From the NCBI RefSeq assembly GCF_016026235.1, contig NZ_CP065613.1: DNA of 64,000 bases. One strand, written 5' to 3'. Source of the stretch: Escherichia coli (GTDB taxonomy: Bacteria; Pseudomonadota; Gammaproteobacteria; Enterobacterales; Enterobacteriaceae). The notes below the pieces were generated by a model. That model saw only the letters and a program-made list of their open reading frames with translations, was not told the origin of the DNA and searched no databases. Positions 41,266 to 64,000 of this stretch are shown piece after piece. Position 1 is the stretch's first letter. Each line of letters opens with the position of its first letter. The translations under genes were made by a program, and so were the position numbers.

Positions 41266-42312
41266 TTAACGTCCTGCTTTCAGCTTCTGATAATACTCTT
41301 CATAAATGCTACTGGCTGCGCCAACGTCATTTTGCCATTCACCATTTTTAATGGTTTCAGCATCCGGGTAGAGCGTTTTATCGTTCGCCACTTCTGGGCT
41401 TAACAGCTTACGCGCCGCAAGGTTTGGCGTTGGATAACCGATAGTTTCGGCAACCTGTTTTGCCACATCCGGGCGCAGCAGGAAGTTGATCAATTTCAGC
41501 GCGCCTTCTTTGTTTTTGGCATTTGCCGGGATCGCCAGGCTGTCCATCCAGAATATGCCGCCTTCTTTCGGCCACACCACGTCAATAGGCGTACCCGCCT
41601 GGCGTGCAACGAAAGCAGAACCGTTCCAGATCATGCCGAGGTTAACTTCGCCTTCCATGTACGGGTTAGCCGGGTTATCGGAGTTAAACGCTGCGACGTT
41701 TGGCATCAGTTTTTTCAGCTCGTTATATGCAGCTTCAATCTCTTTCGGATCGGTGGTGTTACCGGAGTAGCCCAGCTTACGCAGCGCCATCTGGAACACT
41801 TCACGGGCATCGTCGGTCAACAGCAGGCTGCCTTTGTACTCTGGCTTCCACAGATCGGCCCAGCTGGTGACAGATTTTGGATCCACCGCATCACCGTTAA
41901 CACCAATCGCCGTCGCACCCCAGATATACGGAATGGAGTAATCGTTATTCGGGTCAAACGGCTTATTGAGCATGTCTGGATCGAGATTGCTGAAGTTCGT
42001 TAACTTCGACTTGTCGATCTTCTGGATCATCCCTTCTTTACGCATTTTATCGACGTAATAGGTTGAAGGAACCACCAGGTCATAGGCACCGTCTTTGTAC
42101 GTTTTCAGCTTGGCATACATGGTTTCGTTCGACTCGTAAGTCGAATAGATAACCTTAATACCGGTTTCTTTGGTGAACTGTTCAAGCAGTCCTGGCGGCA
42201 CGTACTCGGTCCAGTTGTAGAAATACAGCGTGTTGTTGTCATCGGCGTGAGCGGCGCTCATGCCCAGTGCCAGAGCACCCGCCGCGAGCAGGTGGCGTGA
42301 CCATTTTTTCAT
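41266..42312 (-). CDS. potD: Spermidine/putrescine periplasmic binding protein PotD
   Basis: 348-aa ORF with a signal peptide (MKKWSRHLLAAGALALGMSAAHA). Confidence 0.93.
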   Translation of the reverse strand: MKKWSRHLLAAGALALGMSAAHADDNNTLYFYNWTEYVPPGLLEQFTKETGIKVIYSTYESNETMYAKLKTYKDGAYDLVVPSTYYVDKMRKEGMIQKIDKSKLTNFSNLDPDMLNKPFDPNNDYSIPYIWGATAIGVNGDAVDPKSVTSWADLWKPEYKGSLLLTDDAREVFQMALRKLGYSGNTTDPKEIEAAYNELKKLMPNVAAFNSDNPANPYMEGEVNLGMIWNGSAFVARQAGTPIDVVWPKEGGIFWMDSLAIPANAKNKEGALKLINFLLRPDVAKQVAETIGYPTPNLAARKLLSPEVANDKTLYPDAETIKNGEWQNDVGAASSIYEEYYQKLKAGR

Positions 42313-43103
42313 TTAACGTCCCCTGTGTTACCTTTCGTTTTATCACGAGCAATAAGCTGGCTGGCAATAACCATCACCAGCGACAGCACCAGTAATATGG
42401 TTGCCAGCGCGTTAACTTCCGGCGATACGCCGACTTTGACCATCGAATAAATTTTTAACGGCAGAATTTCATAACTCGGCCCGGTGACGAACGAAGAAAC
42501 CACCACATCGTCCATCGACAGGGTAAAGCTTAACACCCAGCCCGCCGCCACCGCTGGCATTGCCAGTGGCAGAATGATTTTTCGCAGAATGGTAAATTCG
42601 CTGGCACCGAGATCTTTCGCCGCTTCCAGCATTCGCACGTCAAAACCTTTCAGGCGCGAATACACCGTCACCACCACAAATGGCAGGCAGAAGGTGATAT
42701 GCGAGAACAGCAGCGACCAGAAGCCAAGCTGAATACCCAGCAGCATAAACAGCACCAGCAGCGAAATTGCCATCACGATATCTGGTGACATCATTACCAC
42801 AAACAGCATTCCGCTAACGAACGGCTTACCACGAAAGCGATAACGGTACAGTGCAACTGCCGTCAGTGAACCGATAAGAGTAGCAAACGTCGCCGAAAAC
42901 ACCGCCATTGTTAGTGAATGCTGCGCTGCCTGTAACAGGCTGTCGTTGTTCATCAGCAAGCTATACCATTTAGTGGTAAAACCCTGCCAGTTGATGCCAA
43001 AGCGCGAGCTGTTAAAGGAGTTCACAATCAAAATAATGATTGGGATATACAGGTACGCGTAGATAGCGGTCATAAAACCGCCGCGAAGCAGTCGACCGAT
43101 CAT
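42309..43103 (-). CDS. potC: Spermidine/putrescine ABC permease PotC
   Basis: 264-aa permease; overlaps the potD start by 4 bp. Confidence 0.92.
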   Translation of the reverse strand: MIGRLLRGGFMTAIYAYLYIPIIILIVNSFNSSRFGINWQGFTTKWYSLLMNNDSLLQAAQHSLTMAVFSATFATLIGSLTAVALYRYRFRGKPFVSGMLFVVMMSPDIVMAISLLVLFMLLGIQLGFWSLLFSHITFCLPFVVVTVYSRLKGFDVRMLEAAKDLGASEFTILRKIILPLAMPAVAAGWVLSFTLSMDDVVVSSFVTGPSYEILPLKIYSMVKVGVSPEVNALATILLVLSLVMVIASQLIARDKTKGNTGDVK

Positions 43104-43927
43104 TCGAGTTCCACCTTTTTATTCAGCAGACGAGAAGCGCGCCAGTAAACCAGCAACATCAGGCCCATTACGATAGTCAGCGTAATGCTGGTGGCTGCAC
43201 CAAACGGCCAGTCACGAATATTGAGGAACTGTACCTTGATGACGTTACCGATCAGCAGGTTTTTCGCACCGCCCATCAGGTCGGACACATAGAACAGGCC
43301 CATCGCTGGCAGCATCACCAGCAGACATCCGGCAATAATCCCCGGCATCGTCAGTGGAATAATGATACGGATAAAAGTCTGTAACTTGCTGGCACCGAGA
43401 TCGCGCGCCGCCTCAAGCAACGGCTTATCCAGTTTTTCGATACTGGAGTACAGCGGCATCACCATAAACGGCAGCAGAATGTAAACCAGACCGATAATCA
43501 CCGCACTGGGCGTGAACATGATACGGATTGGTGTGTCGATAACGCCCAGCCAGAGCAAAAACTCGTTGAGATAGCCTTTGGTGCTGAGGAAAATTTTCAG
43601 CCCGTAGATGCGAATCAGTGAGTTGGTCCAGAAGGGAACAATCAGCAGAAACAGCAGCAGCGGACGCACCTTGTGTGGCAGCTTCGCCAGAAACCAGGCA
43701 AACGGGTAGCCCAGCACCAGGCAGGCGAGGGTGGCGATCAGCGCCATATTCAGCGAGTGCAATAGCACTTCAAAATAGAGCGGATCGAGCAGACGTGTGT
43801 AGTTATCCAGCGTAAAGACCATTTTGACGAAACTGGCGTCGTCGCGGGTCAAAAAGCTGGTGCCAATGATCATCAGGTTGGGCAGAAAGACAAACAACAC
43901 AAGCCAACCGACAATAGTGACAATCAC
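43100..43927 (-). CDS. potB: Spermidine/putrescine ABC permease PotB
   Basis: Start set at a GTG to give about 275 aa (MIVTIVGW...); the track ORF begins 10 codons upstream. Confidence 0.88.
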   Translation of the reverse strand: MIVTIVGWLVLFVFLPNLMIIGTSFLTRDDASFVKMVFTLDNYTRLLDPLYFEVLLHSLNMALIATLACLVLGYPFAWFLAKLPHKVRPLLLFLLIVPFWTNSLIRIYGLKIFLSTKGYLNEFLLWLGVIDTPIRIMFTPSAVIIGLVYILLPFMVMPLYSSIEKLDKPLLEAARDLGASKLQTFIRIIIPLTMPGIIAGCLLVMLPAMGLFYVSDLMGGAKNLLIGNVIKVQFLNIRDWPFGAATSITLTIVMGLMLLVYWRASRLLNKKVELE

Positions 43928-43940
43928 TACATTCTGGAAC

Positions 43941-45077
43941 TTACTTGTGTTCTTCATCAGCCAGTACGACCTCCCAGCTTTCTACCCAATTAATGGCCAT
44001 TTTTTGGTCGAGAGAGTGGTCAAAGTCAGGATCGTCTTCATTGAAGAATTCGCTGACCATCACCATCTTGCCATTTTCCAGTTCAACAACCGACTCCAGC
44101 GTCATGCCTTTGTAGTTACGCTCACGAACGTAACCAATCAGCCCTTCAGCGTGGTTGTCGTCGTTAATCTCTTCAACACGTAAGTCTTCCGGGCGCAGCA
44201 GAACATGCAGTTTTTGCCCCGGTTCTACGGCGAAGTTAACGTAGATATTACATTCGCGGCCTTCAACGTTGGCGCGTACGCGCTGCTCGTCGAGACGTTC
44301 GATAACAGTGGCGTTAAACATATTGATTTCGCCAATGAACCCGGCAACAAACAGGTTTTTCGGCTCTTCGTAGATTTCACGCGGCGTGCCGTCTTGCTCA
44401 ATGCGACCATCGCGCATCACCACAATCCTGTCTGACATGGTGAGTGCTTCTTCCTGATCGTGAGTCACGAAGACGAATGTAATGCCAAGCTTACGCTGTA
44501 ACGCTTTCAGCTCGTTCTGCATTTGCTTACGCAGTTTGTAATCCAGCGCTGAGAGCGACTCATCCAGCAACAACAGACGAGGCTTGTTAACCACCGCGCG
44601 AGCAATGGCGACGCGTTGCTGTTGACCACCAGAGAGCTGATGCGGTTTACGTTGAGCGAAGGTTTCCAGCTGCACCATCCGCAGGGCTTCCATCACGCGG
44701 GGCGTAATTTCAGCAGCGGGGGTTTTTTGCATGCGCAACCCAAAGGCCACATTTTCGAACACGGTCATGTGGGGGAAAAGTGCGTAGCTTTGGAAAACAG
44801 TGTTCACATAGCGGTTTTCCGCCGGAACGTGGGTGATGTCCTCGTTATCCAGCATGATGCGTCCGGAATCAACAGTTTCCAGACCTGCAATCAGGCGAAG
44901 AACGGTTGTTTTACCGCAGCCAGAAGGGCCAAGCAGCGTGAGGAACTCGCCATTGTTGATAGTCAGATCCAACTGGGGAATGACCTCTTTACCATCAAAG
45001 CATTTGCGAATTCCCGCCAATTGCACCAGCGGTGAAAGCGAACTCGGTTGTTTATTCAATTTTTTACTCTGTCCCAT
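43941..45077 (-). CDS. potA: Spermidine/putrescine ABC transporter ATPase PotA
   Basis: 378-aa ORF with Walker [10 protein letters not shown] and signature LSGGQQQR. Confidence 0.93.
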
Positions 45078-47898: not shown

Positions 47899-49359
47899 TT
47901 ATTCATCTTTCGGCGTAGAATGCTGGCGACCAAAAATCACCTCCATCCGCGCACCGCCAAGCATGCTCTCTCCGGCGACGATTTTACCCTCATATTGCTC
48001 GGTGATTTCGCGGGCTACCGCCAGCCCTACACCTTGCCCAGGGCGTAAAGTATCAACCCGTTGACCACGGTCGAAAATGACCTCTCGCTTGCTTAATGGA
48101 ATACCGGGTCCATCATCCTCGACCACAATATAGAGATGCTCGTCGGTTTGCCTTGCAGAAATTTCGACAAACTCGAGGCAATATTTACAGGCATTATCCA
48201 GCACATTGCCCATCACCTCGACAAAATCGTTCTGCTCACCGACAAAGCTGATCTCTGGCGAAATATCGAGAGAGATATTGACCCCTTTGCGTTGATACAC
48301 TTTGTTCAGCGCCGAGGTGAGATTGTCCAGCAGTGGGGCGACCGGATGCAGCTCGCGGCTGAGCAATGTCCCGCCGCGCATACTGGCACGATGCAGGTAG
48401 TAGCCAATTTGCTGTGAAATGCGGCTGATTTGCTCCAGCATTACCGGTTCAGCATCACTGACGCTCATCTTTTCACTACGCAGAGAACGCAGCGTACTTT
48501 GCAGCACCGCCAGTGGCGTTTTCAGACTATGGGTCAGGTCGGTGAGCGTTGTACGATATTTGTCGTAACGTTCGCGTTCACTTTTTAACAATCGGTTCAG
48601 GTTTCGTACCAGACTGGTCAGTTCTCGCGTTGTGGCTGGATTGAGCAATTCGCGGTTATGTTCTTCCAGTTCGCGGACTTCTTTTGCCAGAGCTTCGATG
48701 GGGCGTAAACTCCACCAGGCGGCGACCCACAGCAGCGGGATCACTAACAGCAGATTGGCTGAGAGCACATAGATAAACCAGCTCCAGACCATATAGGAAC
48801 TTTTTAGCTCCACCGGAATGGTATCCACCACCACAATGGTTAACTTTGGCATCCGCGATGTTGCCGGGTAGACGTTTACCGCCACCGAGTGGGTCATCTC
48901 CGCGTCGTCATCATCTTCCCGCACTTCCTGCAACTGTTGCTGTATCGAATGATCTCCACTCAGCAAGAGGCTGGTATCGTTAACATCCGCTTCAATTTCA
49001 TGAAAACCATTCGATTTCAGCCAGTCAGGCTGGATCATCTTCATCAGCCAGGGCACGTCACGTTGCGCCCATAAAAGCTGCCCGTTCTCATCATAAATTA
49101 GCGTCATGGTGGGGCTTTGCTTGTCGATATTTTCGGGTAACTCGACATGCAACTTATTGTTTTCCCACTTCGCAAGGGTATAGAACAGATTGCTCTCGCC
49201 ACGTAACAGCCGAAACGTAGTTTTATCGAAACTGACGCTATAACCGATCAGCGCGACCATTCCGTAGGCAAGCGAAAGCACCAGTACTACCGCTGCCGTT
49301 GCCAACAGAAAACGTACCCGCAGCGAGAGCGGGAAAAAAAGACGCAGTAATTTTTTCAT
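47899..49359 (-). CDS. phoQ: Sensor histidine kinase PhoQ
   Basis: 486-aa ORF with two transmembrane segments flanking a periplasmic domain, an H-box ([12 protein letters not shown]) and ATPase domain. Confidence 0.95.
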
Positions 49360-50030
49360 CAGCGCAATTCGAACAGATAGCCCTGGCCGCGAACGGTGGT
49401 AATCACTTCTTGGGGATATTGTGCCTGAATTTTTTTGCGCAGACGTCCCATCAGTACATCAATGGTATGGCTTTCCCGCAGCTCCGCATCCGGATAGAGT
49501 TGGAGCATTAACGAATCTTTGCTGACCACTTTGCCATTATTGCGTATCAACGTTTCCATAATGGTGTATTCGAACGCGGTCAGTTTGATCACTTCGTCAT
49601 TAATAGATAATTCACGGCGAGAGAGATCAACCTGAAACGGGGGTAGCGAAATGACCTGTGAAGCCAGACCGCTATTACGCCGCATTAATGCCTGCATTCG
49701 CGCCATCACCTCTTCAATATGAAATGGTTTAGTCACGTAATCATCAGCACCAGCACTTAATACTTCGACTTTGTCCTGCCAGCTTTCACGGGCGGTTAAT
49801 ACCAGAATCGGCAGTGAAACATCATTGCTACGCCAGCGGCGAATCAGTGACAGACCGTCCTCGTCTGGCAATCCGAGATCGACAATCGCAATATCCGGTA
49901 AATGTTCATTGAGATAATAATCGGCTTCTTTGGCATCTTCTGCATCATCGACCTGATGACCAGCATCCTGAATCTGAACTTTAAGGTGGTGACGTAACAA
50001 CGCATTGTCTTCAACAACCAGTACGCGCAT
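49359..50030 (-). CDS. phoP: Response regulator PhoP (OmpR family)
   Basis: 223-aa [35 protein letters not shown]; its stop overlaps the phoQ start by 1 bp. Confidence 0.95.
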
Positions 50031-50090: not shown

Positions 50091-50107
50091 TAAACATTAA
50101 ATAAACC
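50091..50107 (-). promoter_or_regulatory. PhoP box (direct repeat) in the phoPQ promoter
   Basis: Minus-strand sequence GGTTTATTTAATGTTTA, matching the (T/G)GTTTA-N5-(T/G)GTTTA PhoP-box form, about 60-80 bp upstream of phoP. Confidence 0.7.
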
Positions 50108-52248: not shown

Positions 52249-53870
<1,622 letters not shown>

Positions 53871-53879
53871 TTTGCATCC

Positions 53880-54533
53880 TTAATCTGTCACTTCTCGCCA
53901 TTCGCCATTAGCAAGATTATCCAAAGAGTAATCACCCATCGCATAGCGAATCAGTCGCAGCGTGGGGAAACCAACATGGGCGGTCATGCGGCGCACCTGG
54001 CGATTACGTCCTTCATATAAGGTGATCTTCAGCCAGCTGGTGGGAATACTTTTGCGTTCACGAATTGGTGGATTCCGCGGCCATAACCACGCAGGTTCGT
54101 CAACCAGCTCCGCGCCGGCGGGCAGGGTAGGGCCATCATTTAAGGTTACGCCATTGCGCAAGGCTTCAAGTGCGTCTTGTGTGGGAATACCTTCCACCTG
54201 CACATAATAGATTTTTCCGGTGCGTTTACCCGGCTGGGTTAAACGCGCCTGCAACGCGCCGTTATTGGTCAGCACCAGTAACCCTTCGCTATCGCGGTCA
54301 AGACGACCTGCTGCATAAACGCCCTGAACCGGGATGAATTCTTTTAATGTTTTGCGTCCGGCTTCATCGGTGAACTGCGGAAGAACATCGTAGGGTTTAT
54401 TGAACAGGATCACACGCGTGGGCTGGTTTTCAGGTTTACGCCTGGTAGAACGTTGCGAGCTGAATCGCTTAACCTGGTGATTTCTAAAAGAAGTTTTTTG
54501 CATGGTATTTTCAGAGATTATGAATTGCCGCAT
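53880..54533 (-). CDS. rluE: 23S rRNA pseudouridine synthase RluE
   Basis: 217-aa RsuA-family ORF ([17 protein letters not shown]). Confidence 0.9.
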
Positions 54534-54705
54534 TATAGCCTAATAACGCGCATCTTTCATGACGGCAAACAATAGGGTAGTATTGACAAGCCAATTACAA
54601 ATCATTAACAAAAAAATTGCTCTAAAGCATCCGTATCGCAGGACGCAAACGCATATGCAACGTGGTGGCAGACGAGCAAACCAGTAGCGCTCGAAGGAGA
54701 GGTGA

Positions 54706-55956
54706 ATGGAAAGTAAAGTAGTTGTTCCGGCACAAGGCAAGAAGATCACCCTGCAAAACGGCAAACTCAACGTTCCTGAAAATCCGATTATCCCTTACAT
54801 TGAAGGTGATGGAATCGGTGTAGATGTAACCCCAGCCATGCTGAAAGTGGTCGATGCTGCAGTCGAGAAAGCCTATAAAGGTGAGCGTAAAATCTCCTGG
54901 ATGGAAATTTACACCGGTGAAAAATCCACACAGGTTTATGGTCAGGACGTCTGGTTGCCTGCTGAAACTCTTGATCTGATTCGTGAATATCGCGTTGCTA
55001 TTAAAGGCCCGCTGACCACTCCGGTTGGTGGCGGTATTCGTTCTCTCAACGTTGCCCTGCGCCAGGAACTGGATCTCTACATCTGCCTGCGTCCGGTACG
55101 TTACTATCAGGGCACCCCAAGCCCGGTTAAACACCCTGAACTGACCGATATGGTTATCTTCCGTGAAAACTCGGAAGACATTTATGCAGGTATCGAATGG
55201 AAAGCTGACTCTGCCGACGCTGAGAAAGTGATTAAATTCCTGCGTGAAGAGATGGGCGTGAAGAAAATTCGCTTCCCGGAACATTGTGGTATCGGTATTA
55301 AGCCGTGTTCAGAAGAAGGCACTAAACGTCTGGTTCGTGCAGCGATCGAATACGCAATTGCTAACGATCGTGACTCTGTGACTCTGGTACACAAAGGCAA
55401 TATCATGAAGTTCACCGAAGGCGCGTTTAAAGACTGGGGCTACCAGCTTGCGCGTGAAGAGTTTGGCGGTGAACCGATCGACGGTGGCCCGTGGCTGAAA
55501 GTCAAAAACCCGAACACCGGCAAAGAGATCGTCATTAAAGACGTGATCGCTGATGCGTTCCTGCAACAGATCCTGCTGCGTCCGGCTGAATATGATGTTA
55601 TCGCCTGTATGAACCTGAACGGTGACTACATTTCTGACGCCCTGGCAGCGCAGGTTGGCGGTATCGGTATCGCCCCTGGCGCAAACATCGGTGACGAATG
55701 CGCCCTGTTTGAAGCTACCCACGGTACTGCGCCGAAATATGCCGGTCAGGACAAAGTTAACCCAGGTTCTATTATTCTCTCTGCTGAGATGATGTTACGC
55801 CACATGGGTTGGACCGAAGCCGCAGACCTGATTGTTAAAGGTATGGAAGGCGCAATCAATGCGAAGACCGTAACCTATGACTTCGAACGTCTGATGGAAG
55901 GCGCTAAACTGCTGAAATGTTCAGAGTTTGGTGATGCGATCATCAAAAATATGTAA
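54706..55956 (+). CDS. icd: Isocitrate dehydrogenase (NADP)
   Basis: 416-aa [43 protein letters not shown]; full length and uninterrupted. Confidence 0.97.
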
Positions 55957-55978
55957 ACACTACATGTGTTAAATATTT

Positions 55979-56010
55979 AAACGGGCGTATAACACGCCCG
56001 TTGTTTTATT
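55979..56010 (+). terminator. Intrinsic terminator after icd
   Basis: Stem aaacgggcg/cgcccgtt with loop tataaca, followed by gttttattt. Confidence 0.7.
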
Positions 56011-56309
56011 TATGTGGATATTATTAATAGCATATCGAGCATATTTATATAAAACCCATTACTTGAGCCCATATGGGCATATTTTTATAATACAACTCTT
56101 ATGCAAACATTTATTTGTTATTTCGCTTTCTCCTGGAGGACACTCTTGACTGCTTTTGAGTAAACTCCATAAATTCTTGTTGAATGGTGCAATGTTATAA
56201 ATAGTTATAGGATATTCTTTATCCTTAAGGATAATACCAGGCTTAACCAGTGTAGGTAATGCTGCCAACTTACTGATTTAGTGTATGATGGTGATTTTAA
56301 GGTGCTTGC

Positions 56310-56585
56310 GTGGCTTCCATTTCCATCAGATGTCCTTCCTGCTCCGCTACTGAAGGCGTGGTGCGTAACGGCAAAAGCACTGCCGGACATCAGCGCTATC
56401 TCTGCTCTCATTGCCGTAAAACATGGCAACTACAGTTCACTTACACCGCCTCTCAGCCCGGTACGCACCAGAAAATCATTGATATGGCCATGAATGGCGT
56501 CGGATGTCGCGCCAGTGCACGCATTATGGGCGTTGGCCTCAACACGGTTTTACGTCACTTAAAAAACTCAGGCCGCAGTCGGTAA
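56310..56585 (+). CDS. insA: IS1 InsA (transposition inhibitor / N-terminal part of the transposase)
   Basis: 91-aa [43 protein letters not shown]... with a zinc-finger Cys cluster; the A6C slippery site TTAAAAAAC lies at 56559-56567. Confidence 0.93.
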
Positions 56586-57007
56586 CCTCGCGCATACAAC
56601 CGGGCAGTGATGTGATTGTCTGCGCTGAAATGGACGAACAGTGGGGCTACGTCGGTGCTAAATCACGTCAGCGCTGGCTGTTTTACGCGTATGACAGGAT
56701 ACGGAGGACGGTTGTGGCGCACGTCTTCGGTGAACGCACTCTGGCCACACTGGAGCGTCTTCTGAGCCTGCTGTCGGCCTTTGAGGTCGTGGTATGGATG
56801 ACGGATGGCTGGCCGCTGTATGAATCACGCCTGAAGGGAAAGCTGCACGTTATCAGCAAGCGTTACACTCAGCGCATTGAGCGACATAATCTGAATCTGA
56901 GACAACATCTGGCAAGGCTGGGACGGAAGTCACTGTCGTTCTCAAAATCGGTGGAGCTGCATGACAAGGTCATCGGGCATTATCTGAACATAAAACACTA
57001 TCAGTAA
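56504..57007 (+). CDS. insB: IS1 InsB reading frame, expressed as the InsAB' transposase by -1 frameshifting
   Basis: 167-aa -1-frame ORF overlapping the insA 3' end and containing the DDE-like catalytic region. Confidence 0.9.
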
Positions 57008-57854
57008 GTTGGAGTCATTACCACCAGTGTAAATATACTTCCAGGAGGAAGAAATATAGTAGATTGATACCAGATAATCATTTTCATATCACCCCATATG
57101 GCTGAAAAAGATATGCCGCATGTAGGTTGAATTACCGTGTCAATTACTACCCACTTCATTTGTTATGTCTTATCCCACGGTATTTAATATAGTTCATTTG
57201 GATGTTCATTTCTTTATTTTGCATATGAGTATATTACCCCTTCAAAAAATAAATTAATTAAAACGATTGCTTATATAAAACAAAATTTAAAGCAAGGAAT
57301 CTCAATGGATGTTAAACAAAATGAGATTTAGTGAAAACAATAAATTATTCACTTCGTTTTAGATTTGTTTAGCTATAATGTTATACATTCAAATGACTGA
57401 CCATCCTGTAATTAAAACATAGCCTTTATGCTACTTTGTGCCAATTTGCTAAACATTATGGTTGCCTTTTTATATAACGATAATAATGAATATAAGCATG
57501 ACATGAGAATAAGGTTTCAATTTTTGAGTTATATAGGAAAGGTTTAACCTGTTCCTGGCTAAAATACATATAACTGGATGATGACTAAACCAAAACACAT
57601 GTGCGTTAAGTATTGAAACGGGCGTATGGCACGCCCGTTGTTTTTATAAATATATTAAACGTTATGAAATAACGTATAGAAAGTCAAGTGATCACATTTC
57701 AAATATCAATTTGATAGTATTGGCCTGGTGATTATTTATGGGTAGCAATAAAAGGACAGTATTTATCATCCATAGGGATAGTCTCTGTACTTTTATTCCC
57801 ATTATGCTAATGCCTTACTGAATTATGAAGCATTTCTTAAGCATCCAACTTTAG

Positions 57855-58259
57855 CTAGATTAATGGTTTATTATTTTCTACATCTTCAATATATAAAAGC
57901 GTATTATCAATGGCGTAGTAACTGCGTTTGTTATGATTAACATCAGTAACCCAACGGAAAACGCCCGCGTCTGCCAGTGTTGAACAGTATTCCCGAAATG
58001 TAGATTTTCCGCAAATATGAAGCAATGCGGCCTCTTTTATTTTAGCAGGGTTCTTGGTCGTACTAACTTTTAACAGGTTCCTGGTTCCTCTTAATAACAA
58101 AACCGTGTCATCGTGAGTAATAATTCTGATGTTATCCGTAGCCAGATAATAAATGTAATGTGCAATACGGTGATGTTTTAATTCTGAATAAAACCAGGAG
58201 AAGTTTTGCTCTTTTCTCACTTGCTCAAACATCTTTTGAAAAACAACGACCTGATCCAT
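57855..58259 (-). CDS. ycgX: DUF1398-family protein YcgX
   Basis: 134-aa ORF MDQVVVFQKMFEQVRKEQNFSWFYSELKHH flanked by AT-rich DNA, upstream of bluR; identity from recalled gene order. Confidence 0.7.
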   Translation of the reverse strand: MDQVVVFQKMFEQVRKEQNFSWFYSELKHHRIAHYIYYLATDNIRIITHDDTVLLLRGTRNLLKVSTTKNPAKIKEAALLHICGKSTFREYCSTLADAGVFRWVTDVNHNKRSYYAIDNTLLYIEDVENNKPLI

Positions 58260-58479
58260 CAGGATAATAACCTCTTGTTAGTTGTGAGACTGCGTAGTGT
58301 GCACGATCGGTTTTACCACTTCAATCTGGTCTGTTCTTTGGCTGTGATATGTACAGAGTGTGATAGAGGGATTACCTGAATTCTCCCGGTGAGCATTTTG
58401 CAACGGACCAGCTCCGGTACAAATGCTGTTGTGGGTTCAGATTATAACATTCTGTCTAAGGGGCAGGATAAAGGTGAAA

Positions 58480-59211
58480 TTAGGGGGCATGAAAGATGAC
58501 TTTATAACCTTGCTCACCCCAGTGTTGTAAAAGTTCATTTTGCCTTCTCGTTGGTGCCATGCCTGTCCAGACAATCAATGTTTGCGTCGGGAACAGTTCT
58601 GGGCGCGGTGATTCAATGGGATCAGCAAGAACAGAAATGTGCCATCCTGACAATGATAAACGCCATGCTTCCAGCCACAATCGTGCTCTCTCTTCAACAT
58701 TCCATGCCATCAGAATGGCTTCTTTACCGGGCTTACGGCGCATTTCGAAAAGCGAGGCTGCTGCGTATTCAATTAGTGCGCCGTCAAACATACTGCTCAT
58801 AATGCGGGAGGTGTTGTGATCAAGCACGAGACGCTGGCGAACAGGAAGGTAAACATGATTAATCAATTGATCTACTGGGTACTCTCGACCCAGTGAAATA
58901 ATTCTCGCGCGTAGTTTGGCAGGATTAGCCATACGAAGAATTGACATCATCTCTTCTTGCAGGCGGCTCCAGTCATCTTCCGTATCCTGGCTGGTGGTTT
59001 CCAGTAATGCTTTAACTTTGCCTACAGGGACGCCATTACTTATCCAACGCTTGATCTCTTCGATGCGTTGTATGTCTTCTTCATCAAAGAGTCGGTGTCC
59101 GCCTTCACTGCGCTGTGGTTTTAACAAACCGTAGCGGCGTTGCCAGGCCCGGAGAGTGACAGGATTAATCCCGCAACGTTCAGCAACATCACCAATGCTG
59201 TAATAAGCCAC
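58480..59211 (-). CDS. bluR: MerR-family transcriptional repressor BluR (YcgE)
   Basis: 243-aa ORF with an N-terminal MerR HTH ([32 protein letters not shown]). Confidence 0.88.
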
Positions 59212-59405
59212 AATTCCTCCTTGCGGTCATAAATCTCCGTCGCCTGTACACGACCCAATAATACTTTGTACAATATACGCTAAAATTGTACAAAGTATAA
59301 ATAAGATTTCAGCTAAATTGGATGAAACATTATTTTTAATGTGGATTAAATTAAAGCATAACGTATTCATTTTCACGATGATTTACTGAAATCATGTGCT
59401 GAAAA

Positions 59406-60617
59406 TTATTTTTTTTCTGGCCACGCAACTGAAGGGATACCATTCAATTTAGCTTTAGCAAACAGATCCCCCTGAAACATCTCAATTCCTGCGGATTCAA
59501 GCCACATCCACTCTTCTGGTGTTGCCACGCCCATAGCAGAGACTTGAATTTCAAGTGATGTACAGCATTTTATGATCGCCTGAATAATTGCCTGCCGTGG
59601 TCCGCTTTTATGAACATTGGTAATCAATTCCTGACTGATTTTAATTCTGTCAGGCTGGAAGCGTGACAGGAGTAACAAACCAGCAAAACCTGCGCCAAAA
59701 TGATCAATTGCTACACTGATACCGGCAGCCTTTAGCGATTTAACCGCTTCGGCAAACTCATCAAACCGAGATATGACTTCACTTTCAGTAAATTCAACGA
59801 TGATTTGTTCAGGCACCAGAGCATTGGCCTTTATTTCATCAAGTAAAAAAGAGACTGCGTCAGGCTCGTTAACCAGGGTCATAGGTAATAGATTGATTGA
59901 AATCATTTTATCACCGAGCTCAAGTGCGTGTGCCATCGCGAATGCAAGCGCCTTACTTTTAAGATCCGCTGTGTAGATTTCCCCGTCTTTACGCTGCCCA
60001 ACCGCTATAGCTGACGGGCTGTCTTCATTTTTTTGCACAATGGCTTCAAAAGCGATTATCCGCCGCGATAAGGGATCAACAATAGGATGAAAGGCAAAGT
60101 GGTCGTTTATAGTTGGTGAAAGGGTACAGGAATCAAGTTCTTTATCAGATCTGTCAGCGATAAAAAGCCAGGAGTCTTCAGCAGGAATCTCGAAATAGGT
60201 TGATTGTTCGGTTGCAAGGACAAAAGTACGAAAAAATTGTAGCGCTCTGTCATCATAAGTTAGCTGAAATTTTGATGTGCCTTTGTCGAATACGGCCTGT
60301 AAAACGTCATCTCGCTCGTGTAGGCGTAAATCAAATAATTCCATTCCCGCTTTGCCAAAACGGCGAGCAGGCGCGTAATCGCACAGCAGCTCAACAATAT
60401 TATAGTGCCGTGGATCCTGGCATATAGCCCGATATATCATTTTAACCTGTTCTTCCGGACCTTCCAGAAGCTGGAAAAAATGAGAACCATTAAACAGTAA
60501 GATCCCTGTTACGTCAGACTGCATGTTCCTGCGATTTGCAATCGAAACCATTTCTTCGATTTTTTTGACAGGTTCGTCGTCACGTATATGGCTACGATAA
60601 ATAAGGGTGGTAAGCAT
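59406..60617 (-). CDS. bluF: Blue-light sensor BluF (YcgF): BLUF domain plus degenerate EAL domain
   Basis: Start set at MLTTLIYRSHIRDD to give 403 aa; BLUF N-terminal domain (VTGILLFNGSHFFQLLEGP) and an EAL-like C-terminus; the track ORF is 57 codons longer. Confidence 0.88.
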   Translation of the reverse strand: MLTTLIYRSHIRDDEPVKKIEEMVSIANRRNMQSDVTGILLFNGSHFFQLLEGPEEQVKMIYRAICQDPRHYNIVELLCDYAPARRFGKAGMELFDLRLHERDDVLQAVFDKGTSKFQLTYDDRALQFFRTFVLATEQSTYFEIPAEDSWLFIADRSDKELDSCTLSPTINDHFAFHPIVDPLSRRIIAFEAIVQKNEDSPSAIAVGQRKDGEIYTADLKSKALAFAMAHALELGDKMISINLLPMTLVNEPDAVSFLLDEIKANALVPEQIIVEFTESEVISRFDEFAEAVKSLKAAGISVAIDHFGAGFAGLLLLSRFQPDRIKISQELITNVHKSGPRQAIIQAIIKCCTSLEIQVSAMGVATPEEWMWLESAGIEMFQGDLFAKAKLNGIPSVAWPEKK

Positions 60618-60930
60618 TAACTGTCCAGGGTAATGGGAGTGGCGAGAGTAAGACGGTAACAGACATATCTTCCGGTGTCTTTCTTTTAATACCAAAACAT
60701 AACTGTTTCTTTGCATTGATAGAAAATGGAAAAAGTTGAACACGAGTTGGCGAAAAATCTTGTATAGTTTGTCAGTTAAATGATGCAATATGTTTTATCA
60801 TAACGTATTGTTTTATATGTATTAGCACTAATTGCAAAAAATTAATTTATCATTCTGTACACATATTTCGTACAAGTTTGCTATTGTTACCTCACTTAAC
60901 ATTGATTAACATTTTTAACAGAGGCGTAGC

Positions 60931-61167
60931 ATGCATCAAAATTCAGTGACTTTAGATTCTGCGGGAGCAATCACTCGTTACTTTGCAAAAGCTAACTTGC
61001 CTACTCAGCAGGAAACTCTCGGGGAAATTGTGACTGAGATTTTGAAAGATGGACGTAATCTGAGTCGAAAGTCGCTTTGTGCCAAACTTCTTTGCCGACT
61101 GGAACAAGCGACAGGGGAAGAGGAACAGAAACATTATAATGCACTAATTGGGTTGCTTTTTGAATAA
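60931..61167 (+). CDS. ycgZ: Small protein YcgZ (connector of the bluR-controlled operon)
   Basis: 78-aa ORF divergent from bluF, first gene of a four-gene small-protein operon. Confidence 0.8.
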   Translation: MHQNSVTLDSAGAITRYFAKANLPTQQETLGEIVTEILKDGRNLSRKSLCAKLLCRLEQATGEEEQKHYNALIGLLFE

Positions 61168-61209
61168 TGCAACAGCCTGATTATTTAACAGGTTAGCTAT
61201 GAAGTCGTT

Positions 61210-61482
61210 ATGAAGACATCTGATAATGAACGTATAAAATATGAAATTACTGGCCAGGCGGTGCTCCAGATACTGCGCATGAAGATAAATTTTTCGGTGC
61301 AGACTCTTATTAAGCAATTACTCGTAATGAAATCGGCTGAGGAAAATGCTTTCCGACGAGATTTAATTGACAGCATAATTCGTGATTTTAGCAACAGTGA
61401 TACAGGAGGGCCAAACCGAAGAACAGCGATAGCTGACAATAAAAGTATGTTCAATGGTAAGAAAATAAACAGAATACATTAA
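61210..61482 (+). CDS. ymgA: Small protein YmgA
   Basis: 90-aa ORF 42 bp after ycgZ. Confidence 0.8.
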   Translation: MKTSDNERIKYEITGQAVLQILRMKINFSVQTLIKQLLVMKSAEENAFRRDLIDSIIRDFSNSDTGGPNRRTAIADNKSMFNGKKINRIH

Positions 61483-61510
61483 AATTTCATAAGTAAGATG
61501 AGAGGTTACC

Positions 61511-61777
61511 ATGCTTGAAGATACTACAATTCATAATGCAATAACTGATAAAGCGTTATCAAGTTACTTTCGCAGTTCGGGTAATTTGTTAGAAGAAGAG
61601 TCAGCAGTGTTAGGGCAGGCTGTGACTAATTTAATGCTTTCAGGCGATAATGTTAATAATAAAAATATTATCTTAAGTCTGATACACTCCCTGGAAACAA
61701 CAAGTGATATTCTCAAAGCTGATGTGATCAGAAAAACACTGGAAATCGTGTTGCGATACACAGCGGATGACATGTAA
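61511..61777 (+). CDS. ariR: Regulator of acid resistance and biofilm AriR (YmgB)
   Basis: 88-aa [34 protein letters not shown]. Confidence 0.8.
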
Positions 61778-61889
61778 CTTTTAATTATTAAGTATAAGTT
61801 TATAGAAAACTCATTCATCTTATTTTTGTCTGTCGCTTTAGACTATACACAGCATAATTTTATTGGGTTAATATTTCTACGAGGCTGAC

Positions 61890-62138
61890 ATGAATAATTC
61901 AATCCCAGAGAGATTTATTTTTCAATGTGCTTTGTTTAAAAATCTCGAGAGGGAGGTGTTCATGACGCATGGGTATGTTGATAGTCATATTATTGATCAG
62001 GCTTTACGCTTGCGTTTAAAAGATGAAACTAGTGTGATTCTTTCTGATCTCTATCTGCAAATCTTGCAGTACATTGAAATGCATAAGACTACACTAACGG
62101 ATATCATTATTAATGACAGGGAATCCGTGCTCTCTTAG
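61890..62138 (+). CDS. ymgC: Small protein YmgC
   Basis: 82-aa ORF, last gene of the ycgZ-ymgA-ariR-ymgC cluster. Confidence 0.75.
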   Translation: MNNSIPERFIFQCALFKNLEREVFMTHGYVDSHIIDQALRLRLKDETSVILSDLYLQILQYIEMHKTTLTDIIINDRESVLS

Positions 62139-62473
62139 AACTTGAGTAAGGTTATAGAATAAACATCAGCTGTATCATCATGCTGGTGCAAAGTGAGCAT
62201 TTCAGGCGTTATGCTTTCTTAATATATCCGCAATATCAGGGGGCAAACAGGAATGGAGAGCGCTCGTTTTCCATTCTTGACGCCTGATATCCCACCTAAA
62301 TTGTTTAATTCTGCCTACATTGTGCTCAATAATTAATAGGTTAGATGAAGATGGAGAAAATTTTATCTTCGGCGTGGATATTTCTTATGCTCTCTACCAT
62401 GCTCTCTGTAGACGCCAGCGCGAGCGAATGAACGTCATTTTCATGTATTAAACCCTTTGTTCGGGACAAGCGA

Positions 62474-63997
62474 ATGCGCAATACACTCATACCCATCCTC
62501 GTTGCGATATGCTTGTTTATTACCGGTGTCGCTATTTTGAACATCCAGCTCTGGTATTCCGCAAAAGCAGAGTACCTGGCGGGAGCAAGATATGCCGCCA
62601 ACAATATCAATCATATACTTGAAGAAGCGTCACAGGCGACTCAAACAGCGGTTAACATTGCCGGGAAGGAATGCGACCTCGAGGAGCAATATCAGCTTGG
62701 CACTGAAGCAGCTCTGAAACCTCACCTGCGCACAATCATCATTCTCAAACAGGGAATAGTCTGGTGTACATCCCTGCCTGGGAATCGGGTCCTGCTGTCT
62801 CGTATTCCTGTTGTCCCGGACAGTAATTTGCTGTTGGCTCCGGCAATCGACACCGTTAATAGATTACCTATTCTGCTCTATCAGAGCCAATTTGCAGATA
62901 CGCGCATTTTGGTTACGATAAGTGATCAGCATATTCGCGGGGCGCTTAATGTACCCTTGAAAGGGGTAAGGTATGTATTACGCGTGGCGGATGACATTAT
63001 TGGACCTACGGGTGATGTGATGACGCTTAATGGACATTATCCCTATGCCGAGAAGGTTCACTCCACAAAATATCATTTCACTATTATCTTTAACCCGCCA
63101 CCACTCTTTAGCTTCTACAGACTTATCGATAAAGGCTTTGGGATTTTGATATTTATTCTGTTAATCGCCTGCGCCGCTGCCTTCCTGCTAGATAGGTATT
63201 TCAATAAAAGCGCAACGCCTGAAGAGATCCTGCGGCGGGCTATAAATAATGGGGAGATCGTCCCTTTTTACCAACCAGTGGTGAATGGTCGGGAAGGGAC
63301 ATTGCGGGGAGTTGAGGTGTTAGCCCGCTGGAAACAACCTCACGGTGGATATATTTCACCCGCGGCATTTATTCCACTTGCTGAAAAATCCGGATTAATC
63401 GTTCCGCTTACGCAAAGCCTGATGAATCAGGTTGCCAGACAGATGAACGCTATCGCGAGTAAATTGCCGGAAGGTTTTCATATTGGAATTAATTTTAGCG
63501 CCTCGCATATTATTTCGCCGACGTTTGTCGACGAGTGCTTAAATTACCGTGACAGTTTTACCCGCCGCGATTTAAACCTCGTTCTGGAAGTTACCGAGCG
63601 TGAGCCATTAAATGTTGATGAAAGTCTGGTTCAGCGGTTGAACATTCTGCATGAAAATGGTTTTGTCATCGCGCTGGATGATTTCGGTACTGGCTACTCA
63701 GGGCTTTCTTATCTGCATGACCTGCATATTGATTATATCAAAATTGATCACAGTTTCGTTGGCCGCGTCAACGCAGACCCAGAATCAACCCGAATTCTGG
63801 ATTGTGTATTGGATATGGCGCGTAAACTTTCGATCAGTATCGTCGCTGAAGGTGTCGAAACGAAAGAACAACTTGATTATCTGAACCAAAATAATATCAC
63901 ATTTCAGCAGGGTTATTATTTCTATAAACCTGTTACATACATCGACCTGGTCAAAATTATCCTTTCTAAACCGAAGGTGAAGGTTGTGGTTGAGTGA
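62474..63997 (+). CDS. pdeG: Cyclic-di-GMP phosphodiesterase PdeG (YcgG): CSS-motif sensor plus EAL domain
   Basis: 507-aa ORF with an N-terminal transmembrane helix, periplasmic Cys-containing sensor domain, second transmembrane helix and a C-terminal EAL domain (EVLARW...DDFGTGYS). Confidence 0.88.
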   Translation: MRNTLIPILVAICLFITGVAILNIQLWYSAKAEYLAGARYAANNINHILEEASQATQTAVNIAGKECDLEEQYQLGTEAALKPHLRTIIILKQGIVWCTSLPGNRVLLSRIPVVPDSNLLLAPAIDTVNRLPILLYQSQFADTRILVTISDQHIRGALNVPLKGVRYVLRVADDIIGPTGDVMTLNGHYPYAEKVHSTKYHFTIIFNPPPLFSFYRLIDKGFGILIFILLIACAAAFLLDRYFNKSATPEEILRRAINNGEIVPFYQPVVNGREGTLRGVEVLARWKQPHGGYISPAAFIPLAEKSGLIVPLTQSLMNQVARQMNAIASKLPEGFHIGINFSASHIISPTFVDECLNYRDSFTRRDLNLVLEVTEREPLNVDESLVQRLNILHENGFVIALDDFGTGYSGLSYLHDLHIDYIKIDHSFVGRVNADPESTRILDCVLDMARKLSISIVAEGVETKEQLDYLNQNNITFQQGYYFYKPVTYIDLVKIILSKPKVKVVVE

Positions 63998-64000
63998 AAA

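Follow-up and report, generated by a model that had tools for sequence, protein, structure and literature searches.

An IS1F-type element splits iraM within an AT-rich IS1 hot region of the Escherichia coli chromosome

In Escherichia coli K-12, IraM binds RssB and stabilises RpoS (PMC5740661; bioRxiv 10.1101/2023.01.07.523045). Expression of iraM is induced ∼20-fold in a PhoQ-dependent manner (PMC5740661), and a role of the protein in Mg2+ starvation is described together with its structure (bioRxiv 10.1101/2023.01.07.523045). The stretch of E. coli DNA analysed here, a window of 64 kb, carries an IS1 element within this gene, and an initial annotation had described the arrangement as a clean and probably recent insertional knockout. 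The locus raises the questions of whether this arrangement is a true transposition event, what is left of the gene, how old the insertion is, and whether the loss of iraM was selected or simply tolerated. The gene order of the region is canonical: phoQ-phoP-purB-hflD-mnmA-nudJ-rluE-icd is followed by iraM-ymgK-ymgL-ycgX-bluR-bluF. The iraM gene lies directly downstream of icd in convergent orientation and is followed by ymgK-ymgL-ycgX, an order which matches that of strains FDAARGOS_943 and C600. The insertion itself consists of the following features.

56255-57022, plus strand (transposase genes; opposite to iraM): complete IS1 of the IS1F type, 768 bp
56246-56254, no strand: left copy of the target-site duplication, ACCAGTGTA, corresponding to gene nt 129-137; the gene strand reads TACACTGGT
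57023-57031, no strand: right copy of the target-site duplication, present as the single copy at the empty site of FDAARGOS_943

The two copies of ACCAGTGTA, at 56246-56254 and 57023-57031, directly flank the element at 56255-57022, and the left-hand IS1 junction reads GGCTTAACCAGTGTAGGTAATGCTGCC. These are the only occurrences of the 9-mer on both strands of the 64-kb window, and the direct repeat is confined to exactly these 9 bp. The probability that the given flanking 9-mer is matched by chance is ∼4e-6. The perfect 9-bp target-site duplication claimed for this element is therefore real. It comprises gene nt 129-137 and places the insertion within codons 43-46 of iraM, the stop and start of which define the bounds of the split gene at 56059 and 57159, respectively.

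Assemblies are classically prone to error at IS copies, and we therefore considered an assembly artefact or an IS1-mediated rearrangement that fused two unrelated loci. The closest complete genome, E. coli FDAARGOS_943 (NZ_CP065615.1), speaks against both. In its chromosome, the match of the left flank of the insertion (53000-56254) descends to 1542429 and that of the right flank (57023-60500) starts from 1542437, so that the flanks are contiguous and their matches overlap by exactly the 9 bp of the duplication (1542429-1542437). Here, ACCAGTGTA occurs once, within an annotated intact iraM gene (WP_001312752.1). This empty site with one 9-mer in a near-identical relative rules out both chance and an assembly artefact, and re-inspection of the direct repeat, raised in the initial annotation as a safeguard against a misjoin of two loci, showed it to be a true one. 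Moreover, a misjoin or a recombination between two IS1 copies leaves no identical 9-mers on both sides, and the two gene halves rebuild an exact known protein. An artefact or rearrangement is effectively refuted as an explanation of iraM::IS1, and we give it next to no probability.

Deletion of 56255-57031 results in a single, uninterrupted minus-strand open reading frame of 324 nt (107 codons), with its ATG at 57159 and its TAA ending at 56059, exactly as had been predicted. The rebuilt 107-aa protein scores 168.4 bits over residues 1-107 on the NCBIfam model NF007393 (IraM / PRK09919; cut-off 121) and agrees in every residue with WP_001312752.1, the protein annotated as IraM in FDAARGOS_943. 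It also matches the crystallised IraM(1-78) (PDB 8twd_A) over residues 1-78 with E=3.7e-45. These results confirm the proposed identity of the interrupted gene. Relative to K-12 IraM, 99 of the 107 residues are identical (92.5%), with 8 amino acid differences. IraL, the ycgW homologue of strain CFT073, is a homologous RssB anti-adaptor encoded at the equivalent locus of other E. coli and Shigella strains; it is expressed in log phase and shares 58.9% amino acid identity with K-12 IraM (PMC4045071). Since the rebuilt protein is 92.5% identical to K-12 IraM, compared to 58.9% for IraL, the interrupted gene is iraM rather than iraL. Like the insertion anatomy and the empty site, the identity of both genes is a matter of observation. 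What remains of iraM in the present-day sequence is as follows.

57023-57159, minus strand: 5′ fragment of iraM, gene nt 1-137 (45 full codons plus two bases of codon 46)
57001-57159, minus strand: open reading frame behind the iraM start, 52 aa (IraM 1-46 followed by VMTPTY from the right end of IS1)
56059-56254, minus strand: 3′ fragment of iraM (gene nt 129-324, the duplicated 9 bp included), cut off from promoter and start codon

The sole open reading frame over the 3′ fragment uses a TTG start inside IS1 (56268). On the IraM model, the 52-aa frame reaches 72 bits and the 3′ frame 86 bits, both short of the cut-off of 121, and an exact-protein look-up of the 52-aa and 69-aa fragment frames found neither on record as a called protein. 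For annotation purposes, the open reading frames 56059-56268 and 57001-57159 should form one iraM pseudogene.

We propose that an IS1F-subgroup element of the active type inserted itself into the chromosomal iraM gene at codons 43-46, duplicating 9 bp. The 107 codons are thereby broken into a fragment next to the promoter, which can encode at most residues 1-46 of IraM followed by six IS-derived residues, and a 3′ fragment that has no promoter. The functional core of IraM comprises residues 1-78, which form an antiparallel β-barrel with a hairpin and a helix; the protein contacts RssB through three clusters, the third of which (Ile61-Ile64, in strand β7) binds the segmented helical linker (bioRxiv 10.1101/2023.01.07.523045). 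The truncated product would lack the second half of the β-barrel core, including the β7 contact cluster (61-64) for the RssB linker. From the absence of ∼40% of the crystallised 1-78 core we strongly infer a loss of function, and judged from its sequence the strain is almost certainly IraM-null. One could argue that IraM 1-46 with its VMTPTY tail keeps partial anti-adaptor activity, which would make the allele hypomorphic rather than null, since all residues of RssB contact clusters I and II (4, 6, 13, 14, 18, 22, 26, 30 and 42) are inside the retained 46. But these residues are displayed on a β-barrel that requires the missing strands, cluster III (61-64) is lost together with the flanking helix, and the shortest construct reported to give a stable complex is 1-78 (bioRxiv 10.1101/2023.01.07.523045). 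Together with the score of the fragment, 72 bits against a cut-off of 121, this makes a hypomorphic allele highly improbable.

The inserted element was dissected into the following parts.

56255-56277, plus strand: left terminal inverted repeat, 20/23 match to the reverse complement of 57000-57022
57000-57022, minus strand: right terminal inverted repeat, 20/23 match to the left end
56310-56585, plus strand: insA, 91 aa, GTG start; NCBIfam IS1 transposase positions 1-81 and IS1/IS1595 zinc-binding domain
56561-56567, plus strand: A6C slippery site, where a programmed −1 frameshift joins InsA and InsB′ into one protein
56504-57007, plus strand: insB′ frame from its first ATG, open; the frame opens further upstream

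As ends the element has GGTAATGCTGCCAACTTACTGAT and, read from the complementary strand, GGTAATGACTCCAACTTACTGAT; these imperfect repeats agree at 20 of 23 positions. When the reading frame is shifted by −1 at the A6C site, translation yields a 232-aa InsAB′ fusion without any stop, which scores 245 bits on the NCBIfam IS1 transposase model NF033558 (cut-off 100) and covers the profile completely (1-199/199). With its 768 bp, terminal repeats, intact insA, A6C site and reconstructable InsAB′, the element is indeed the complete IS1 that it had been taken for, and it appears to be coding-competent. The element is identical to IS1F of K-12 MG1655 at 763 of 768 positions, compared to 701 of 768 (91%) for a copy of the IS1A type; by nucleotide identity it belongs to the IS1F subgroup. 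The K-12 IS1F (NC_000913.3, 4518472-4519239) also measures 768 bp and has the same ends. However, it occupies another chromosomal location, and its insB′ is interrupted by a TAG stop at IS position 542, where the window element reads TGG and the frame is open. Accordingly, insB′ of the K-12 copy is annotated as the pseudogene insB7, whereas the window copy represents the intact form. Based on its open frames, its intact ends and its recent insertion, this copy should be transposition-competent. Many E. coli genomes carry copies that are 100% identical to it, and in 3,926 records the top match reaches an identity of 99% or more.

How recent is the insertion? Over ∼20 kb of shared flanks, the window and FDAARGOS_943 differ at 5 positions; within the right flank (57023-64000), 2 of 6,978 positions differ. 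FDAARGOS_943 has a lambdoid prophage after potB, and the window is without it. An empty site in a relative this close places the insertion after a very shallow split. Together with the 100% identity of the IS1 to copies elsewhere, this supports the earlier assessment of the event as probably recent. An IS1 at exactly this site of iraM was found in none of 5,426 complete E. coli genomes. Likewise, a 37-mer across the left junction gave no matches in the GTDB contigs (one genome per species), and a junction 27-mer gave none in the JGI metagenome contigs. A recent insertion, probably specific to the strain or its sublineage, is thus supported by the sequence comparisons. The source genome is absent from the complete E. 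coli collection, so that its lineage could sit outside this collection, and the insertion might instead be old and fixed in a lineage that decays by Shigella-like genome reduction. Such an origin is very unlikely: the site is empty in the relative that differs at 5 of ∼20,000 positions, the duplication is perfect, and the IS1 is 100% identical to other copies with its transposase frames open. In addition, the 64-kb window holds one IS copy only, the IS1 at 56255-57022. IS-expanded genomes usually carry several IS copies per such span, and a Shigella-type decay was set aside on the grounds of this single copy.

The surroundings of the insertion are undisturbed. The convergent neighbour is the following gene.

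54706-55956, plus strand: icd (convergent with iraM), not affected by the insertion

Past icd, a terminator-like hairpin is located at 55980-56002. No e14 prophage is present at icd in the window, and an Rfam scan of 54500-59500 returned no RNA family at E≤0.1. Because no further gene follows iraM on its strand and icd converges on it, no polarity is expected; a polar effect on the neighbours was rejected, as iraM faces the icd terminator.

The initial annotation further stated that the insertion would uncouple PhoPQ signalling from RpoS stabilisation while phoPQ and the iraM promoter region are intact. The features relevant for this prediction are listed below.

49359-50030, minus strand: phoP, intact (NF008078, 480 bits, cut-off 336, 1-223/223)
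47899-49359, minus strand: phoQ, intact (NF008077, 957 bits, cut-off 497, protein 1-486)
57160-57601, minus strand: iraM upstream (promoter) region, uninterrupted

PhoP and PhoQ are both full length and score far above the NCBIfam cut-offs, in agreement with this statement. For the promoter it holds in part. The upstream region is uninterrupted and collinear with that of FDAARGOS_943 as well as that of K-12 C600, from which it differs by scattered substitutions and one indel of 4 nt. Neither a promoter nor a PhoP box, however, could be located within it. A PhoP-box scan upstream of iraM resulted only in candidates with two mismatches (57277-57293 on the minus and 57355-57371 on the plus strand), which are no better than chance; window-wide, 24 such matches were found, with 15 expected by chance. 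The same scan recovered a perfect PhoP box, GGTTTATTTAATGTTTA, upstream of phoP (50091-50107) as its positive control. A generic sigma-70 scan of this AT-rich DNA gave 10 sites compared to 7.2 expected.

By analogy to K-12, the ancestral allele of the window would have encoded a protein that binds RssB and stabilises RpoS, and these activities would be lost in the split gene. Activation of PhoQ/PhoP by low Mg2+ or osmotic upshift would then no longer stabilise RpoS via inhibition of RssB, while the remaining PhoP regulon would still respond. The uncoupling of PhoPQ from RpoS stabilisation in this strain is a reasonable expectation from the K-12 work. Regarding the phenotype, which we infer from the same work, a K-12 ΔiraM mutant recovers more slowly from osmotic stress and has a longer lag after osmotic upshift (PMC5740661). 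The predicted defect extends to PhoP-dependent acid responses, in which RpoS would not rise through RssB inhibition. This prediction for the RpoS branch refers to the iraM locus alone, with rssB, rpoS, iraP, iraD and any copy of iraL located outside the 64-kb window. No known mechanism is altered by iraM::IS1.

An IS1 within ∼1.2 kb of the locus is found in 37 complete genomes. Insertion positions were mapped in 10 of these 37, which revealed at least 12 further independent IS1 positions in the window equivalent of 56057-58226 (∼2.2 kb). They include the following, given in window coordinates.

ECCNB12-2: 56057-56065, at the iraM stop codon; 9-bp duplication
HCP6S3_I1: ∼56230-56238, inside iraM, 16 bp from the window site and in opposite orientation; 9-bp duplication, GGATAATTC
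EC590: ∼57399, ∼240 bp upstream of iraM; no 9-bp duplication
184/2aE: 57494-57502; 9-bp duplication
TB354: 57580; no 9-bp duplication
D4: 57640-57648; 9-bp duplication
MEI008: 57778; no 9-bp duplication
VTB97420v: 57830-57838; 9-bp duplication
HCP6S3_I1, second IS1 copy: 57854; no 9-bp duplication
LH10-b-1: 58022-58030, in ycgX; 9-bp duplication
EC-107: 58226; no 9-bp duplication

Six of these other insertions are flanked by clean 9-bp duplications, which supports the 9-bp rule for IS1; the rest abut deletions or rearrangements. The IS1 copies of the region with adjacent deletions also illustrate what junctions without matching 9-mers look like. The icd-iraM-ycgX islet is AT-rich and a hot region for IS1. 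Over 817 bp, its GC content is ∼30%, compared to 50% for the whole window. IS1 prefers AT-rich targets, and the hot region fits this preference. A literature search on the target preference of IS1 found nothing useful.

Does the position of the window element reflect more than this preference? Only one of the 12 other mapped insertions is inside the 324-bp iraM gene, and the length of the gene alone predicts a share of 324/2200, that is, ∼15%. Moreover, iraM is rarely disrupted: of 3,937 genomes with a match of the iraM type, no more than 24 (0.6%) have less than 80% of it at a single location. This lack of enrichment within the gene and the rarity of disrupted alleles favour a neutral hit over a selected loss, and the insertion is most probably neutral or nearly so, in an AT-rich islet that is often struck by IS1. 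Alternatively, the knockout could be adaptive, with the loss of IraM selected to lower RpoS and iraM being a recurrent target of parallel inactivation. In line with this idea, three independent IS disruptions of iraM are on record, by IS1 in the window, by IS1 in HCP6S3_I1 and by ISApl1 in ST-617 (PMC5404521). We nevertheless regard an adaptive knockout as unlikely, because one in 12 positions is close to the expectation from gene length and the gene is overwhelmingly kept across the genomes surveyed. That the independent knockouts are parallel adaptive events across natural E. coli appears slightly less likely still. Polymorphisms that attenuate rpoS are well known, and if the knockouts were indeed parallel adaptive events, their effect would similarly be to cut back the PhoPQ-to-RpoS arm of the general stress response.

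Comparison with other iraM alleles puts the near-neutral hit into context. The iraM::IS1 allele of HCP6S3_I1 (NZ_CM149868.1) resembles that of the window in its 9-bp duplication and in the split of the gene into N- and C-terminal halves, which RefSeq annotates as two IraM pseudogene pieces. However, it arose independently: the insertion is located 16 bp further into the gene, in opposite orientation, and involves an IS1 variant of 95% identity. In mcr-1-positive ST-617 isolates, iraM is disrupted by ISApl1, from which the authors inferred that RpoS degradation goes on under Mg2+ limitation (PMC5404521). Both this and the window allele are natural IS knockouts that lead to the same inference for RpoS, but the ST-617 allele carries an IS30-family element with a 2-bp duplication, in another lineage and at another site. 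The K-12 ΔiraM strain of the Keio collection has lost the function of the same gene by a clean, engineered deletion. In contrast, the 5′ 137 nt and the promoter region remain in the window allele, which differs from K-12 by 8 amino acids, lies in a wild background and could in principle revert by precise excision between the 9-bp repeats. The iraM::IS1 insertion is an ordinary event that created a new allele, and similar natural disruptions have already been annotated and published.

Taken together, we are highly confident in the overall account of a recent IS1F insertion that almost certainly rendered the strain iraM-null, most likely as a near-neutral hit in an AT-rich islet. The structural claims of the initial annotation were all borne out, position by position. 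The allele adds one data point to the pattern of the IS1 hot region, and the strain is a predicted natural iraM-null in a wild background, for which FDAARGOS_943 provides a near-isogenic comparator with the empty site.

The stretch from icd through iraM, ymgK and ymgL to ycgX (equivalent to 56057-58226 of the window) is a hot region for IS1. Besides the insertion that splits iraM in the window, the element occupies at least 12 other independent positions in the icd-ycgX stretch (37 of 5,426 complete genomes). IS1-adjacent deletions accompany several of the insertions in this region. In MEI008 and HCP6S3_I1, for example, pdeG adjoins IS1, while in TB354 and EC-107 the element adjoins ymgA, so that bluR-bluF-ycgZ has been lost.

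Of 768 positions, 5 differ between the IS1 copy in the window (56255-57022) and IS1F of K-12 MG1655 (4518472-4519239). One such difference places a TAG in insB' of the K-12 element, where the window copy has a Trp codon. This makes K-12 IS1F a dead copy, whose element type in other E. coli is intact and evidently mobile. Our comparison with the closest complete genome, FDAARGOS_943, revealed a further difference: potABCD is uninterrupted in the window (41266-45077), whereas in FDAARGOS_943 a lambdoid prophage that is riddled with IS copies and exceeds 45 kb in length follows immediately after potB. Thus, these near-identical backgrounds differ by at least one prophage in addition to IS1.

The only zero-mismatch PhoP-box match in the window, GGTTTATTTAATGTTTA, is located on the minus strand about 60 bp upstream of phoP (50091-50107), in agreement with the autoregulated phoPQ promoter. 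About 200 bp upstream of iraM, we found a PhoP-box-like sequence with two mismatches, CGTTTTAGATTTGTTTA (57355-57371, plus strand), followed by GCTATAATGTTATACATT. This sequence lies on the strand opposite to iraM and is directed away from it, antisense to ymgK and ymgL; the site is kept in K-12. It could represent a divergent promoter, the PhoP site of iraM in reverse orientation, or a chance match.

By megablast, an iraM-type gene was detected in only 3,937 of the 5,426 complete E. coli genomes. The other ~1,489 genomes probably carry the divergent iraL type or are missing the gene. The iraL type shows 67% nucleotide identity (PMC4045071). Most iraM alleles found in the megablast search of complete genomes are 90-95% identical to the window allele, a divergence that is unusually high for a gene at a core locus.

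Together with its upstream region, iraM is enclosed between two copies of a 43-nt direct repeat (88% identical), which consists of the icd terminator and its 3' flank. Both copies score as terminator-like hairpins:

55965-56007, repeat copy 1, icd terminator/3' flank, terminator-like hairpin
57602-57644, repeat copy 2, icd terminator/3' flank, terminator-like hairpin

With IS1 removed, the stretch between the repeats measures 817 bp and forms an islet with a GC content of about 30%. The repeat pair resembles a scar that an old integration event left at the icd attachment site, which is the e14 site in K-12. Horizontal acquisition of iraM would fit with such an integration scar at icd.
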